Positions 1,452-7,132 of a DNA stretch of 28,657 nucleotides are shown here, in pieces (the stretch's first letter is position 1; every line of letters begins with the position of its first letter). This DNA comes from Escherichia phage ST-T-K. Location: sequence record OR992647.1. One strand, written 5' to 3'. The notes under the pieces were generated by a model that worked only from the letters and a program-made list of their open reading frames with translations, had not been told where the DNA came from and made no database searches. The position numbers and the translations under genes were made by a program.

Positions 1452-2240
1452 ATGGCTAAAGTCAACCTGAAAAATGTACGTGTATGCTTCCTGAAAATTT
1501 GGGAACGTGATACTCCTAAACAGGATGGACAAAAACCGGCATACCGTGCCGTGATTCTTCTTGATAAAGAAGATCCGCAGGTGGACAAAGTGGAAGCGGC
1601 AGCGCGCGCAGTGCTTACCGACAAGCTGAAATCCGAGAAGAACGCCGATAAGTGGATGGACCGCCACTACGCCCAGGATTCTAAGGAATGCGCGGTTCGT
1701 GACGGTGACGAGCGCGACGAAGTAACCGAAGAGTTTGAAGGCATGTTGTATATCAACGCCAAATCGTTCAAACAGCCTAACATCCAAACGTCACTGGGCG
1801 AGAAGCAGACCGAACAGGGTCTGACTATCGACGGCGACGAGATCGAAGGCCAGGAAATCTATTCCGGTTGTTATTGCAACGTGTCCCTGGATATTTGGGC
1901 GTGGAACAACACCAACGGCAAAGGCCTCGGTGCCGGTTTGATGGGTCTTCGCTTCCGCGACGACGGTGATTCCTTCGGTGGCGGCGGATCTTCTTGCTCC
2001 GACGATGACCTGGGTGACGATGACGAAGATGAAGCACCGCGCAAGTCTAAGAAGTCCAAACGTCGTGACGACGAAGACGAAGACGACAAGCCGCGCAAGT
2101 CCAAGAAATCCAAGCGCCGCGATGACGACGACGAAGACGAGGAAGATGAGAAACCTCGCAAGCGTCGTAAGTCCCGCGATGACGAAGATGAGGACGAAGA
2201 CGACGAAGACGAAGCACCACGTAAACGTCGCCGCCGTTAA
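1452..2240 (+). CDS. ssDNA-binding protein, T7 gp2.5-like (DUF2815-like) with repetitive acidic/basic C-terminal tail
   Basis: ATG at 1452 with GAGGAA at 1439-1444 (7-nt spacer); the ORF track's upstream GTG at 1407 lacks an RBS. Architecture resembles gp2.5-type SSBs (N-terminal MAKVNLKNVRV, glycine-rich segment, charged tail). Sits between nuclease and polymerase. Confidence 0.6.
   Translation: MAKVNLKNVRVCFLKIWERDTPKQDGQKPAYRAVILLDKEDPQVDKVEAAARAVLTDKLKSEKNADKWMDRHYAQDSKECAVRDGDERDEVTEEFEGMLYINAKSFKQPNIQTSLGEKQTEQGLTIDGDEIEGQEIYSGCYCNVSLDIWAWNNTNGKGLGAGLMGLRFRDDGDSFGGGGSSCSDDDLGDDDEDEAPRKSKKSKRRDDEDEDDKPRKSKKSKRRDDDDEDEEDEKPRKRRKSRDDEDEDEDDEDEAPRKRRRR
2001..2237 (+). repeat. in-frame imperfect tandem repeats encoding alternating poly-Asp/Glu and PRKSKKSKRR blocks
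   Basis: Translation shows DDDEDEAPRKSKKSKRRDDEDEDDKPRKSKKSKRRDDDDEDEEDEKPRKRRKSRDDEDEDEDDEDEAPRKRRRR; the underlying DNA shows repeated gacgaagacga / ccgcgcaagtccaag units. Confidence 0.7.
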
Positions 2241-2298: not shown

Positions 2299-2469
2299 AT
2301 GCGTATTAAAGCCAGTGAAGTAAAAGTCGGAATGCGTGTGTGGTCCAAATTGCTGGGCGAGTATTTTACCGTTGCCGAGATTCGCAACAACGGCGAAGAG
2401 ATTGCCCTTTCCGACGGTATCTTCTCCATGATCGGCAGCGCTGACGCCGTAGTGAGGATAAAGCAATGA
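2299..2469 (+). CDS. small hypothetical protein (56 aa), translationally coupled to DNA polymerase
   Basis: Not in the ORF track (under 60 aa). ATG at 2299 with AGGA at 2286-2289; translates MRIKASEVKVGMRVWSKLLGEYFTVAEIRNNGEEIALSDGIFSMIGSADAVVRIKQ; TGA at 2467-2469 overlaps the polymerase ATG at 2466 (ATGA). Confidence 0.4.
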   Translation: MRIKASEVKVGMRVWSKLLGEYFTVAEIRNNGEEIALSDGIFSMIGSADAVVRIKQ

Positions 2470-4757
2470 AAGACTTAGAACGCCTATTTCTCGACACCGA
2501 GACGTTTAGCGGGGTGGACCTGAAGAAAGCAGGTGCGTATGCCTACGCGGAACACCCCACCACCGAGATTATGATTTGCACCTACGCCATCGACGAGGGC
2601 CGCGTGCAGACATGGGACGCCACTGAATCCCCAACAATGCCGCGTGAACTGCGCAAGGCGCTCCGCCGCGTATCCCGCAAGAAAGCAAAAATAGTGATGG
2701 CTAACGGCCTCCTGTTTGACCGCCTGGTTATCCGTGAAAAGTGGGGTATCGACCTGCCGGTAAGCCAGATCGAAGATACTATGATTATGGCCTTCCGACA
2801 CGCGCTGCCGGGTAGCCTCGATATGCAATGCCAGGTGCTGGGCGTTGACGCAGAGCACGCGAAGGATAAGGCGGGCAAGGCGCTGATCAAACGGTTCTGT
2901 AAGCCTACCCCTAAGACCTACAAAATCCGCCGCTACACCCGCGACACACACCCTGAAGAATGGGCTAAATTCCTGCGCTATGCCGCGCTGGATATTATCG
3001 CAATGCGTGAAGTCTACTGGCGCATACCGGACTGGGGTAACACGCCGAAGGAAGACGAAATCCTGCTTATTGACCAGTTGATTAACGACCGTGGCTTCTA
3101 TGTGGACGTTGACCTGGCTAACGCCGCGATCAAGGCGGTGCAGGTGCATAAAGAGGAATTGAAGGAAGAAGCCTGGGAACTGTTCGGCGGTAAGCTGACC
3201 GGCAATGACTTCCTGCCAATCCTGCGTGATATTGCCCCGGCGTTCACAATTCACAACGCGCAGAAATCCACGCTGAATGACTTGCTGGAAGATCCAGACT
3301 TCCCCGACGAGGGCAAAGTGCTTATTGAGATGCGCCTCGGTGCGTCATCAACGGCATCGACTAAATACAATCCGCTCGTAAACGGTCTTTCTGCCGATGG
3401 TCGCCGCCGTGGTTGTCTTCAGTATGGTGGGGCAAAGCGCACACTACGCTGGGCTGGTAAAGGCTTTCAACCTCAAAACCTGGCACGTGGCGAGTACAGT
3501 GATGACCACGAAGGGAAGATTAAGCGCCGCGAAGGTGAGAGCGACGTCTCGTTTTGGGTACGGTCGCACATGCTCACCAACGGCATCAACTCCCTGTTAC
3601 GCGGGACCGCGCACTGGGCGTATGACATATCGAAGCTGACCGCCTCGACCGTTCGCGGGTGCATTATCCCGGCTAAGGGCAAGAAGTTTGTCGTAGCGGA
3701 CTACTCCAACGTGGAAGGGCGCGGCCTTGCCTGGATCGCAGGCGAGAAAACCGCATTAATGGTGTTTAAGGCCGGACGCGATATCTATTGTGAAACTGCC
3801 GGTAAGATGTTCGGCCTCGACCCGGACTACATTAAAGCCAACCGCAAAGACTTGCGCCAGATTGGTAAGGCGTGTGAATTGGGGCTGGGCTATGGTGGCG
3901 GCGTTGCTGCGTTCTTGCAATTCGCTAAAAACCTGGGCCTCGACCTGTACGCAATGGCTGACGTCATGAAGGGTACATTCCCGGATCACATTTGGGCGGC
4001 GGCGAAGCGAGGCTATGAGTTTGCCCGCATCAACGAAGCGAAGCGACCGCCGAAGCCGGGCAAGAAAGACGAGCGCCCAACCTACATACTGCCTAAAAAT
4101 GTATGGTTGACCTGTGACGCGATTAAACGCATGTGGCGTGAGTCTCACCCGAAGACCGTAGATTTTTGGTCCGAGCTTGAGCACGCGGTGTTAAACGCAA
4201 TACGCAATCCGGGTAAGGCATACTGGGCTGGCGCGAACGTTCGCCCGGATGGTAAGAAAGCGCTCAAAATTGTTCGCACGAAGGCGAAGCATGACCCAAC
4301 CTTCGACGAGGAGCGCGACGACCCGAACGCGGCGGGCTGGTGGCTGAAGGTTGAGTTGCCGTCCGGGCGAATCATGAGCTACCCCGGCATCGCGTTGTCT
4401 GTCACTACCGAGATTGACGAAGACACCGGCAAGAAGCGCACCAGCACTCGCATAAAATACCAGGGCGAGAATCAGACTACGCGCCAGTGGGGATTCCAGT
4501 ACACCTACGGCGGCAAACTGACGGAGAACATCGTACAGGCGTTGTGCCGCGATATCCTCGCATGGTCCATGCCTGGTGTCGAAGCTGCGGGCTATGAAAT
4601 CGTCCTGTCAGTGCATGATGAATTGATCACCGAAGTGCCAGACACAGACGACTACACGACCGAGGAGCTATGCGCGCTGATGTGCGACCTGCCGATATGG
4701 GCGAACGGTTTCCCACTTGCCGCCGAAGGCGACATTATGTACCGGTACAGGAAGTAA
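2466..4757 (+). CDS. DNA polymerase, family A (Pol I-like) with N-terminal 3'-5' exonuclease domain
   Basis: 763 aa. N-terminal Exo I motif DTETFSG; polymerase motif B RQIGKACELGLGYGGG; motif C LSVHDELITEV. Confidence 0.9.
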   Translation: MKDLERLFLDTETFSGVDLKKAGAYAYAEHPTTEIMICTYAIDEGRVQTWDATESPTMPRELRKALRRVSRKKAKIVMANGLLFDRLVIREKWGIDLPVSQIEDTMIMAFRHALPGSLDMQCQVLGVDAEHAKDKAGKALIKRFCKPTPKTYKIRRYTRDTHPEEWAKFLRYAALDIIAMREVYWRIPDWGNTPKEDEILLIDQLINDRGFYVDVDLANAAIKAVQVHKEELKEEAWELFGGKLTGNDFLPILRDIAPAFTIHNAQKSTLNDLLEDPDFPDEGKVLIEMRLGASSTASTKYNPLVNGLSADGRRRGCLQYGGAKRTLRWAGKGFQPQNLARGEYSDDHEGKIKRREGESDVSFWVRSHMLTNGINSLLRGTAHWAYDISKLTASTVRGCIIPAKGKKFVVADYSNVEGRGLAWIAGEKTALMVFKAGRDIYCETAGKMFGLDPDYIKANRKDLRQIGKACELGLGYGGGVAAFLQFAKNLGLDLYAMADVMKGTFPDHIWAAAKRGYEFARINEAKRPPKPGKKDERPTYILPKNVWLTCDAIKRMWRESHPKTVDFWSELEHAVLNAIRNPGKAYWAGANVRPDGKKALKIVRTKAKHDPTFDEERDDPNAAGWWLKVELPSGRIMSYPGIALSVTTEIDEDTGKKRTSTRIKYQGENQTTRQWGFQYTYGGKLTENIVQALCRDILAWSMPGVEAAGYEIVLSVHDELITEVPDTDDYTTEELCALMCDLPIWANGFPLAAEGDIMYRYRK

Positions 4758-5707: not shown

Positions 5708-7132
5708 ATGGCAAGATTCCGACGTCGCGAATACCAGAAGTTGATAACCGCGTTTATTCTCAAGCACGAACGTTGCAATATTTGGGCGACAATGGGATCC
5801 GGTAAAACCGGCGCGACTATGTGGGCGCTCAACAAAATGTTCCAGACTGGCATCCTATCCAACCAGGAGGACCGCGTACTGGTGCTGGCCCCGCTGCGCG
5901 TTGCGTCGGGTACGTGGCCCCCGGAACAAGAAAAATGGAGATTCCCCGCCCTGCTGGTGGTAGACGGCACCGGGCCGGAGAAGGACCGCATTGCAGCGCT
6001 TGAAAGCGACGCTAACGTGGTTTGTGTTAACTACGATGTGGTTGAGTGGCTTGTAGAGTATTGCGGCGACGAGTGGCCTTTTACGGTCGTTGTTGCCGAT
6101 GAATCCACTAAGCTGAAAGGCTACCGCAGTAAGCAGGGCAGTAAGCGCGCACGCGCACTGGCGGCGATTGCACATAAGCACGTCAAGCGCTGGATCAACC
6201 TGACCGGCACGCCAGCACCAAACGGACTGAAAGACCTATGGGGTCAGACGTGGTTTGTCGACGGTGGCGAACGCCTCGGCAGTAGCTATCAGGCATTCAC
6301 CGACCGCTGGTTTATTAGCAAGCCTGTTAAGCCAGGCAGCTTCACTATGCAGCACGCCCCGCTCAAGAACTCCGAGAAGGAGATCCAACAACGCCTGTCA
6401 GACGTGTCGCTTACCGTTGATGCGGCTGAATACTTCGGATGTGACAAGCCAATCTATACGCCGGTTGTTGTGGACCTGCCGAAGAAAGCCCGCAGGATTT
6501 ACGACCAGTTCGAGAGCGAGCTATTTGCCGAACTGGAAAGCGGAACAGTGGAAGCGGCGAACGCTGCGGCGAAGACCATCAAGTGCCTCCAGCTTGCTTC
6601 CGGGGCCGTGTATAAGGTGGACGAGGACGGCGAACGGACCGACGAGTGGGAGAAGATTCACGACGCCAAGCTGGACGCGCTGGAAAGTATAGTAGAGGAG
6701 TTGAACGGCGCGCCGTTGCTCGTTGCGTATCAGTACAAGCACGACCTGGCACGTCTGAAGAAGAAATTTCCCCACGGCGTTGCGATGGGTAAGGGTAAGC
6801 AGGGTAATAAGGATATGGAAGCGTGGAACAGGGGCGAGATTCCCATCATGTTCGCACACCCAGCATCAGCGGGTCACGGCCTCAACTTGCAGGACGGAGG
6901 TCATCACCTGGCTATCTTCTCAGATACGTGGAACTATGAGCACTTTGCGCAGATCGTGGAGCGTATCGGGCCGGTCCGCCAGATGCAAGCCGGACACCCT
7001 CGACCGGTATTCGTCTATATTATCCAGGCACGCGGAACACTGGACGAACTGGTGGCCGACCGCCGCGACGGTAAGCGCGATATCCAGGACGATTTGATGG
7101 AATATATGAAAGCTAAGAAGGTGCGCAAGTGA
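5708..7132 (+). CDS. SNF2/DEAD-like superfamily 2 helicase
   Basis: Walker A MGSGKTG; motif II VVVADESTKL; C-terminal helicase region HPASAGHGLNLQDGGHHLAIFSDTWN. Start ATG at 5708 chosen over the track's upstream start, which overlaps the previous gene. Confidence 0.85.
   Translation: MARFRRREYQKLITAFILKHERCNIWATMGSGKTGATMWALNKMFQTGILSNQEDRVLVLAPLRVASGTWPPEQEKWRFPALLVVDGTGPEKDRIAALESDANVVCVNYDVVEWLVEYCGDEWPFTVVVADESTKLKGYRSKQGSKRARALAAIAHKHVKRWINLTGTPAPNGLKDLWGQTWFVDGGERLGSSYQAFTDRWFISKPVKPGSFTMQHAPLKNSEKEIQQRLSDVSLTVDAAEYFGCDKPIYTPVVVDLPKKARRIYDQFESELFAELESGTVEAANAAAKTIKCLQLASGAVYKVDEDGERTDEWEKIHDAKLDALESIVEELNGAPLLVAYQYKHDLARLKKKFPHGVAMGKGKQGNKDMEAWNRGEIPIMFAHPASAGHGLNLQDGGHHLAIFSDTWNYEHFAQIVERIGPVRQMQAGHPRPVFVYIIQARGTLDELVADRRDGKRDIQDDLMEYMKAKKVRK

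Follow-up and report, generated by a model that had tools for sequence, protein, structure and literature searches.

The locus and its single-stranded DNA-binding protein

The 28,657-nucleotide (nt) stretch of Escherichia phage ST-T-K DNA analysed here (OR992647.1; referred to as the window) carries at positions 1452–2240 (+ strand) a gene of 262 codons plus stop for an SSB (a protein that binds single-stranded DNA, or ssDNA) of the T7-gp2.5/Enc34 type (PF10991, formerly DUF2815), and the subject of this analysis is the long C-terminal tail of this protein. The protein is a T7-type SSB with a repeat-built polyampholyte tail and a basic end. The open reading frame (ORF) of the SSB opens at GTG 1407, and ATG 1452 (MAKVNL...), which is preceded by GAGGAA, is the start in related annotated phages, with the stop codon at 2238–2240. 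The region is matched by 160 phage records at 85–96% nucleotide identity, nearly all of them from Dhillonvirus (HK578-like siphophages) of Escherichia coli and Shigella, and the window itself is from a Dhillonvirus-like siphophage of E. coli. In the deposited genomes the gene is called hypothetical or is given the name ‘Gp2.5-like ssDNA binding and annealing protein’.

A preliminary description made from the DNA alone had called the product a gp2.5-type SSB, and this label is correct based on several types of evidence. Residues 3–193 match positions 2–172 of the 176-position PF10991 profile (Enc34_ssDNA-bd; 111.2 bits, where 26 is the cut-off, and E = 5.8e-32), and the sequence also matches the solved DUF2815 structures 4klk and 4jg2 as well as the Enc34 SSB 5odj. 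In an AlphaFold2 (AF2) model built from 66 homologues, the OB-fold core predicted to bind ssDNA comprises amino acids (aa) 1–175 (1452–1976, + strand), where the mean predicted local distance difference test score (pLDDT) is 89–98 per 10-residue block up to residue 170, and pLDDT is at least 90 at 155 of the 262 residues of the model. Foldseek matches the model to 4klk (DUF2815, E = 2e-12), 5odl (Enc34, 8e-12) and 1je5 (T7 gp2.5, 2e-6). In a phmmer alignment to 5odj (chain numbering offset 2), the Enc34 stacking residue Trp150 (T7 Tyr158) is matched by W149 and Asn154 by N153, while the second Enc34 stacking residue, Tyr156, is not conserved, the aligned SSB position being N155. The homologous SSB of phage SECphi4, when co-expressed, triggers toxicity of retron Eco8 (bioRxiv 10.1101/2022.08.27.505566).

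F175-GGGG is followed by a tail of 83 aa (aa 180–262, nt 1989–2237), which begins with SSCSDDDLG and continues as four repeat units. The exit is a glycine hinge, GGGGSSC (aa 176–182; 1977–1997, + strand), with pLDDT below 50 at residues 178–183, and at least 90% of the 66 aligned homologues keep F175 and G176. Directly after the hinge is a proximal acidic-hydrophobic motif, SDDDLGD (aa 183–189; 1998–2018, + strand), a presumed docking peptide that corresponds, across the family, to the canonical SSB tail. The four units, all on the + strand, are DDDEDEAPRKSKKSKRR (2016–2066), which reads DDDEDE-AP-RKSKKSKRR, DDEDEDDKPRKSKKSKRR (2067–2120), which reads DDEDEDD-KP-RKSKKSKRR, DDDDEDEEDEKPRKRRKSR (2121–2177), which reads DDDDEDEEDE-KP-RKRRKSR, and, together with the basic C-terminus, DDEDEDEDDEDEAPRKRRRR (2178–2237), which reads DDEDEDEDDEDE-AP-RKRRRR. 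Each unit has 17–20 aa and follows the pattern (D/E)6-12-(A/K)-P-(K/R/S)7-9, and the protein ends in PRKRRRR. Two features that the preliminary description did not have are therefore observed in the tail, namely that the canonical acidic-hydrophobic tip is absent from the end, which is PRKRRRR, and that the conserved acidic motif, SDDDLGD, is proximal.

The tail contains 38 D/E, 28 K/R, 8 S and 4 P, which gives a net charge of −10 and a charged fraction of 0.80. The charges are segregated far more than the composition requires, with a kappa-like value of 0.59 versus 0.11 in 5000 composition-preserving shuffles (z = 10.7). The tail has 8 charge-sign runs, whereas 20000 shuffles gave 33 on average and never fewer than 17; the blockiness is beyond chance. 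These charge runs and the four units bear out the earlier claim of a tail of about 80 aa with alternating acidic and basic blocks, and the 79 codons then assigned to it (2001–2237) lie inside the tail as defined here (1989–2237). The disorder check that had been proposed was also carried out, and the tail is predicted to be disordered, with a mean AF2 pLDDT of 45–54 per 10-residue block from residue 181 onward (65 for residues 171–180) and with a three-residue helical turn at 184–186 as the only secondary structure in the tail model. It is, by these measures, a disordered, net-negative C-terminal segment and a strongly segregated (blocky) polyampholyte intrinsically disordered region (IDR). 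It differs from the canonical tip, which is purely acidic with a hydrophobic or aromatic end, in having 28 K/R in four blocks, and its sole hydrophobic residue is the internal L187. A single alpha-helix (SAH) of the ER/K type was considered and rejected, given that the model has no long helix, the sequence is Asp-rich with one Pro per unit, and the charge blocks are 6–12 residues long. Of the 210 ORFs of 60 aa or longer that were read from stop to stop on the two strands of the window, no other has both acidic and basic blocks, a homology query with 75 aa of the tail only gave 8000 word-sharing candidates but none at E ≤ 1e-3, and literature searches found no description or test of the SSB tail.

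The SSB gene lies between a gene for a DUF2800 PD-(D/E)XK exonuclease (up to 1127, its 5′ end lying beyond the window), followed by a small ORF (1120–1362), and a gene for a family-A DNA polymerase (2466–4757). Upstream of the SSB gene is a candidate sigma-70-like promoter (1359–1387, + strand; TTGACC, 17 nt, TAAATT), which has 9 of 12 matches in a consensus scan. One listed retron-Eco8 escape mutation of SECphi4 is intergenic and lies upstream of the homologous SSB gene (bioRxiv 10.1101/2022.08.27.505566). After the SSB stop is an intrinsic-terminator-like element (2259–2289, + strand), consisting of a hairpin (2259–2279) with an 8-pair stem, six of them GC pairs, and a T-run (TTTATT), and related records have a terminator annotated at the same site. 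This is followed by a 56-aa ORF (2299–2469, + strand), the stop of which overlaps the start of the polymerase gene (ATGA at 2466–2469). Its product is homologous to the ‘protein of unknown function (56aa)’ and differs by 1–2 residues from the versions in SECphi4, SECphi6 and SECphi18. An E21 frameshift in this protein is found in defence-escape mutants of SECphi6 and SECphi18, and these mutants are listed in the same block of Table S2 as the SECphi18 polymerase mutation R171L, which is assigned to Borvo in the text (bioRxiv 10.1101/2022.08.27.505566).

Variation, selection and distribution of the tail

The tail is encoded by an imperfect 51–60-nt tandem repeat, as had been noticed from the DNA. 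Tandem Repeats Finder reports a repeat at 2016–2140 with a period of 54, 2.3 copies, 81% matches and a score of 159, and a repeat search gave two families, one of 54 nt in three copies (100/78/61%), the third of them more degenerate, and one of 48 nt in six copies, the latter extending into unit 4. The prediction that such a repeat is prone to length variation was followed up with 14 Dhillonvirus sequences that read through to the stop. Nine of these have four basic blocks, four have three (L007, L014, the fused allele L010, and SECphi4) and one has two (L009). The deletions are of 16, 22 or 39 residues, in frame, and join repeat-homologous points. Unit 2 is deleted in HK578-type and EK99P-1-type relatives; in SECphi4, EP23-type and 22664B1 relatives it is unit 3 that has been deleted or fused. 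The terminal ...EDEAPRKRRRR is unchanged in 13 of the 14 aligned sequences, with DEDKAPRKRRRR in L014. Database clusters add SSB alleles of 218 and 224 aa, the former being the shortest protein seen; among sampled phage records that match over the full length, the gene spans 723–792 nt, and across 57 Dhillonvirus records chosen as a spread sample it is mostly 771–792 nt, with about one in five shorter or with the alignment lost inside the tail. Hence the tail is a coding tandem repeat with copy-number polymorphism, close relatives having two, three or four basic blocks, and a conserved, non-repetitive tail of the same length was seen in no relative.

Several irregular versions of the tail were also noted. 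In two database versions of the SSB (clusters P0005 and P0010) the tail is translated in a different frame, …AMTKMKHRARLRSPNVV…, and continues beyond the usual stop; the same frame is open in the window at 1966–2295. In vB_EcoS-22664B1 (L032, MZ234008.1) the cause is a 2-nt insertion just after the DDDLGD codons together with a 57-nt unit deletion, and this shifted frame is either a sequencing error or a very recent mutation since the normal frame is still kept in the downstream DNA. In L012 (IMGVR_UViG_3300045988_003101) the SSB tail breaks into ...DDAVSYTHLRAHET at the 3′ contig end, which we take to resemble translated sequencing-adapter sequence, and this would mean an assembly artefact inside the repeat. 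In addition, the unrelated Erwinia jumbo phages pEa_SNUABM_16 and pEa_SNUABM_28 (H158–H160; 267 kb) have a 34-nt, 97% match to the GA-rich codons of the acidic run at nt 2177–2210, probably by chance and through the low complexity of a different D/E-rich protein.

The peptide is under purifying selection while its DNA drifts. In 91 sequence pairs the tail has a proportion of replacement differences (pN) of 0.032 and of synonymous differences (pS) of 0.319, a pN/pS of 0.10, and the values for the OB fold are 0.016, 0.277 and 0.059, respectively. Within the gene itself, PRKSKKSKRR is encoded twice (units 1 and 2), and the two copies differ by five synonymous third-position changes and no replacement in 30 nt. 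Alternative-frame ORFs over the same region (1966–2295 on the + strand; 1791–2246 and 1871–2161 on the − strand) were rejected as by-products of GA-rich codons, since the frame-0 third positions vary freely.

Homologue searches with the full-length protein are biased to look-alike tails since candidates are picked by shared words, and this was corrected for by a fold-only search of 1.84 billion cluster representatives (50% identity), in which PF10991 proteins make up about 2400 clusters at E ≤ 1e-3. A basic block in the tail was found in 13 of the 145 usable nearest representatives, with two or more blocks in 9 of the 145, and the remaining representatives have purely acidic tails of 15–40 residues with a hydrophobic end. 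Across the family, 140 of 141 tails without basic blocks end in an acid plus a hydrophobic residue. On a neighbour-joining tree of the fold, the basic-block trait (120 positives) needs 13 Fitch changes versus 86 when shuffled, although the tree has no support values and the 13 changes are only a rough sign of several gains or losses; the trait is strongly clustered yet found in several lineages. These include phages with a single unit (...DDLEDDEEDEAPRRERRRR), which are Jerseyvirus SETP3 and Kagunavirus K1ind2 and RP180, as well as Cornellvirus SP-031 with two units, Serratia phage Otaku with three and Dhillonvirus with up to four. Metagenomic lineages have up to 11 units, usually with an acidic-hydrophobic tip after the repeats (...RSRDDDVA, ...DDDDLPF, ...DDDDIPF). 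The DNA repeats that encode the metagenomic tails have other periods, 39–42/81 and 54–60/114 nt, and since the periods differ between lineages the expansion of the tail is lineage-specific. The architecture of the tail, conserved and under purifying selection, therefore extends beyond what the preliminary description covered, to Dhillonvirus, Guernseyvirinae and several distant metagenomic lineages.

Two distant PF10991 proteins may be mentioned separately. One (P0184) has about 160 aa of RD/GR/SR-type repeats (…GRDRGSDRDRSR…) and the other (P0234) has six DDDDDRGSRSRSR units, and their sequences hint that alternating-charge tails arose more than once in the PF10991 family.

The units follow a common grammar. 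In a sample that holds close relatives, so that the counts are descriptive only, 91% of 439 basic blocks (120 tails) have Pro in the first three residues, typically as (A/K/R)-P-(R/K), and the internal ones mostly end in RSR. The median length is 9 residues for basic blocks and 6 for acidic runs. Each unit adds about 14.7 aa and about −1.25 net charge, and tails with 2–4 units have a net charge of about −9 versus −8.2 for canonical short tails. The units are near-neutral, and they therefore act as length modules on a tail of preserved overall charge.

The proximal motif and its likeness to the exonuclease C-terminus

A [DE][DE][FLYWI] motif occurs within the first 25 tail residues, just past the Gly hinge, in 219 of 261 family members. 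In crystals of Enc34 ORF6, two DUF2815 structures and gp2.5, the proximal tail lies in the concave beta-sheet groove of a neighbour, and Enc34 ORF6 without its tail binds double-stranded DNA (dsDNA) too (PMC5686142). SDDDLGD aligns with the groove-lying part of the Enc34 ORF6 tail.

The window contains only two matches to the motif pattern, one in the proximal SSB tail and the other in the C-terminal peptide of the exonuclease, SEATDEDLGNE (1092–1124, + strand), which resembles it. The likeness recurs in other loci with the same two genes, where the exonuclease C-terminus and the proximal tail of the cognate SSB read TDEDLGNE and SDDDLGDD (this window), ADEFNEED and ADDFEDDD (L023), GSAQSDFSQF and GSAKQDFKGF (L024), EYDDEED and DYDEEDD (L027), and EDDFEALPNESDLSDLI and EDDFDALDGADADDLV (L028). 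Motifs of the L, F and Y type co-vary with matching flanks between the exonuclease and its cognate SSB (also in L017, L020, L021 and L023–L031). Over 8 independent lineages, cognate pairs score 238 versus 179 ± 14.7 when permuted, the cognate score being reached by only 16 of 40320 permutations; the patterns used to find the start of the tail misplaced the boundary in a few sequences, and all segments in the 8-lineage test contained the motif. These peptides suggest that the exonuclease and the SSB share a docking peptide or site, which would couple the exonuclease to the SSB or to the replisome.

Eight metagenomic loci available as DNA, and one known from a gene table only, share the order exonuclease, SSB, large gene. 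The large downstream gene has a PF00476 (DNA_pol_A) match in six of these nine (three of the matches being weak or faint) and no Pfam match in two. Two further observations concern this module. In L023, a distant relative, the gene at 5721–5984, between the DUF2800 exonuclease and the SSB, encodes a Tad2-like (PF11195) anti-defence protein, and HNH homing-endonuclease genes interrupt the exonuclease-SSB module in L018, L023 and L026.

Possible roles of the tail and comparison with known systems

We favour, at about even confidence, the reading that the tail combines a docking motif with an electrostatic linker and self-association module, most of the doubt lying in the inferred steps. The proximal motif SDDDLGD would do the classical job of an SSB tail by filling the OB groove of its own or a neighbouring SSB and docking partners, and the cognate exonuclease would carry a copy of this docking peptide, comparable to the gp5-binding tail shared by T7 gp4 and gp2.5. 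Units are gained and lost in frame by recombination or slippage between the 51–60-nt DNA repeats, and they would lengthen the tail while the net charge is held at the canonical value of about −9. Pairing of acid and base within or between tails is possible since the opposite charges are segregated into blocks. Within one tail such pairing would produce a compact, salt-sensitive and autoinhibited state, while between neighbouring SSBs the acidic and basic blocks of different tails may pair, and the basic blocks may also contact nucleic acid. On ssDNA the SSB would then be more cooperative or self-associate more, and strands would anneal more easily. One repeated tail would unite roles that in T4 gp32 are divided between the basic N-terminal LAST motif and the acidic C-domain.

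Several points weigh against this. Block pairing, a gain in cooperativity and help in annealing are read from the charge pattern, and the likeness of the exonuclease and SSB peptides concerns short acidic sequences in few independent lineages. The number of units is not tightly constrained, since viable phages have two, three or four, and the module is not essential to the function of the fold, since Guernseyvirinae have a single unit and basic blocks are missing altogether from about 90% of the nearest family clusters. In addition, the SSB is without the C-terminal aromatic or hydrophobic residue that T7 gp2.5 requires.

It is unlikely, although of the alternatives it fares best, that the repeats are a neutral low-complexity expansion produced by slippage, with selection asking only for disorder and a rough charge balance. 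This would fit the two to four units found among propagating isolates, the near-neutral charge of the units, the many family members without them, and the retron-Eco8 escape mutations, which are in the fold (T56P) or upstream and not in the tail. The selection data point the other way, as the pN/pS of the tail is 0.10 with synonymous divergence unreduced. Furthermore, the x-Pro start and RSR end of the basic blocks are kept across lineages with 25–35% fold identity, every Dhillonvirus and Guernseyvirinae member examined has at least one basic block, and the expansion is independent in several lineages.

Slightly less likely still is a self-associating scaffold, in which the tails together with ssDNA would form a salt-sensitive condensate or a cooperative coat that concentrates the replication-recombination machinery. 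If true, the copied docking peptide would bring in clients, the DUF2800 exonuclease among them, and the number of units would tune the material properties. Such a scaffold would be a bacterial-virus counterpart of the nucleolar scaffolds with D/E tracts and K blocks, and natural alleles with 1–11 units exist.

It is improbable that the basic blocks are an autonomous module of the histone-H1 SPKK or arginine-rich type that binds or condenses nucleic acid, coating or compacting dsDNA or RNA. Blocks of 7–10 residues rich in K, R, S and P do resemble known non-specific DNA-binding tails, the protein does end in PRKRRRR, and dsDNA binding by the tail-less Enc34 ORF6 (PMC5686142) could be taken to favour such a role. 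However, every basic block is flanked by an acidic block of equal or larger size, the net charge of the tail is −10, which disfavours DNA condensation, and it stays negative as units accumulate. The gene also lies in a replication module with its own promoter and terminator, and neither a packaging nor a nucleoid role is indicated.

Equally improbable, in our estimate, is that tail length is an arms-race trait, in which the number of units helps to evade, or decoy, host defences that sense phage SSBs. Dhillonvirus SSBs do trigger such defences, namely retron Eco8, in the case of SECphi4 (bioRxiv 10.1101/2022.08.27.505566), and type III Sir2-HerA (PMC13434337), and close relatives differ chiefly in the tail. 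Yet escape maps to T56P or to the region upstream of the gene, outside the tail, Eco8 activation is unaffected by deletion of the T7 C-tail (10.1101/2025.11.11.687766), and the low pN/pS speaks against diversifying selection on the sequence.

Iterons are found inside a replication gene in phage lambda, in gene O. With this precedent, the tandem 51–60-nt repeats and the strongly purine-rich coding strand might suggest a DNA-level element (origin iterons, or a recombination or regulatory site) with an incidental peptide, but this is largely refuted and very improbable, since the synonymous sites of the tail drift as fast as those of the fold (pS 0.32 and 0.28) while the peptide is kept and replacements are rare, the two PRKSKKSKRR copies differ at synonymous sites only, and distant lineages keep the peptide grammar with other DNA periods and sequences.

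T7-type SSBs have a textbook short acidic tail with an aromatic end that switches between the DNA groove and partners, and the SSB tail described here breaks this rule while being conserved and selected. Nature provides an allelic series, with one unit in Jerseyvirus and Kagunavirus, 2–4 in Dhillonvirus and up to 11 in metagenomic lineages. The proteins are easily purified, the phages (BASEL collection, SECphi4) lend themselves to genetics, and the system could therefore show how the charge patterning and length of a tail tune SSB cooperativity, annealing and hand-off. Dhillonvirus SSBs also serve as triggers in the retron Eco8 and Sir2-HerA studies, and in the accessible portions of this published work the modelling hides the tail. 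The co-varying exonuclease peptide suggests a physical coupling of the DUF2800-DUF2815 pair, a widespread, uncharacterised and putative recombination module.

In eukaryotic blocky polyampholyte IDRs, charge segregation promotes compaction and condensate formation. Like the N-terminus of nucleolin, Nopp140 and the nucleolar proteins with D/E tracts and K blocks, the SSB tail alternates acidic tracts with tracts rich in K, R, S and P, although this is an analogy only, as there is no homology, the context is a bacterial virus and the units are much shorter. We know of no phosphorylation system for the phage SSB tail.

T4 gp32 has a basic N-terminal peptide, the LAST motif, which drives cooperativity. 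In both T4 gp32 and the SSB of the window, a monomeric SSB core is accompanied by a short peptide rich in K, R, S and T and by a disordered acidic domain. In gp32 the basic N-terminal motif and the acidic C-domain control cooperativity and autoinhibition, according to the accessible portion of one report (PMC12893549). However, gp32 belongs to an unrelated fold family and has its basic and acidic elements once each, at opposite ends, whereas here they alternate four times in one tail. The LAST motif is a (K/R)3(S/T)2 peptide that binds the core of the neighbouring SSB; blocks such as RKSKKSKRR are rich in K, R and S and do not exactly follow this pattern.

The E. coli SSB (EcSSB) is likewise a fold with a long disordered spacer and a short acidic docking peptide. 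Its linker influences cooperativity and phase separation, as far as the accessible text of one study extends (10.1101/2022.01.17.476650). Some distant relatives of the SSB end in DDDDIPF or DDDDLPF after the repeats, which is comparable to the EcSSB tip DDDIPF. The EcSSB linker is Gly/Gln/Pro-rich and near-uncharged with a terminal tip, whereas in the present tail 80% of the spacer is charged, in blocks, and the motif comes before the repeats.

The T7 gp4 helicase-primase and gp2.5 have shared and interchangeable acidic C-terminal tails that dock on the gp5 polymerase. As in T7, two proteins of one module share an acidic-hydrophobic peptide (TDEDLGNE in the exonuclease and SDDDLGDD in the SSB), although the partner here is a PD-(D/E)XK exonuclease and not a helicase. 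The closest likeness is to ORF6 of Enterobacter phage Enc34, other PF10991 SSBs and T7 gp2.5, which have a homologous OB core, a Gly-rich exit and a disordered net-negative tail with a proximal [DE][DE][F/L] motif, as well as the same neighbouring genes, the DUF2800 exonuclease lying upstream and the family-A polymerase downstream. Those tails are 15–30 aa long and purely acidic with a hydrophobic or aromatic end (Enc34 ...WDEDEV, T7 ...DDDF), whereas the tail of the SSB described here is 83 aa long, contains 28 K/R and ends in RRRR.

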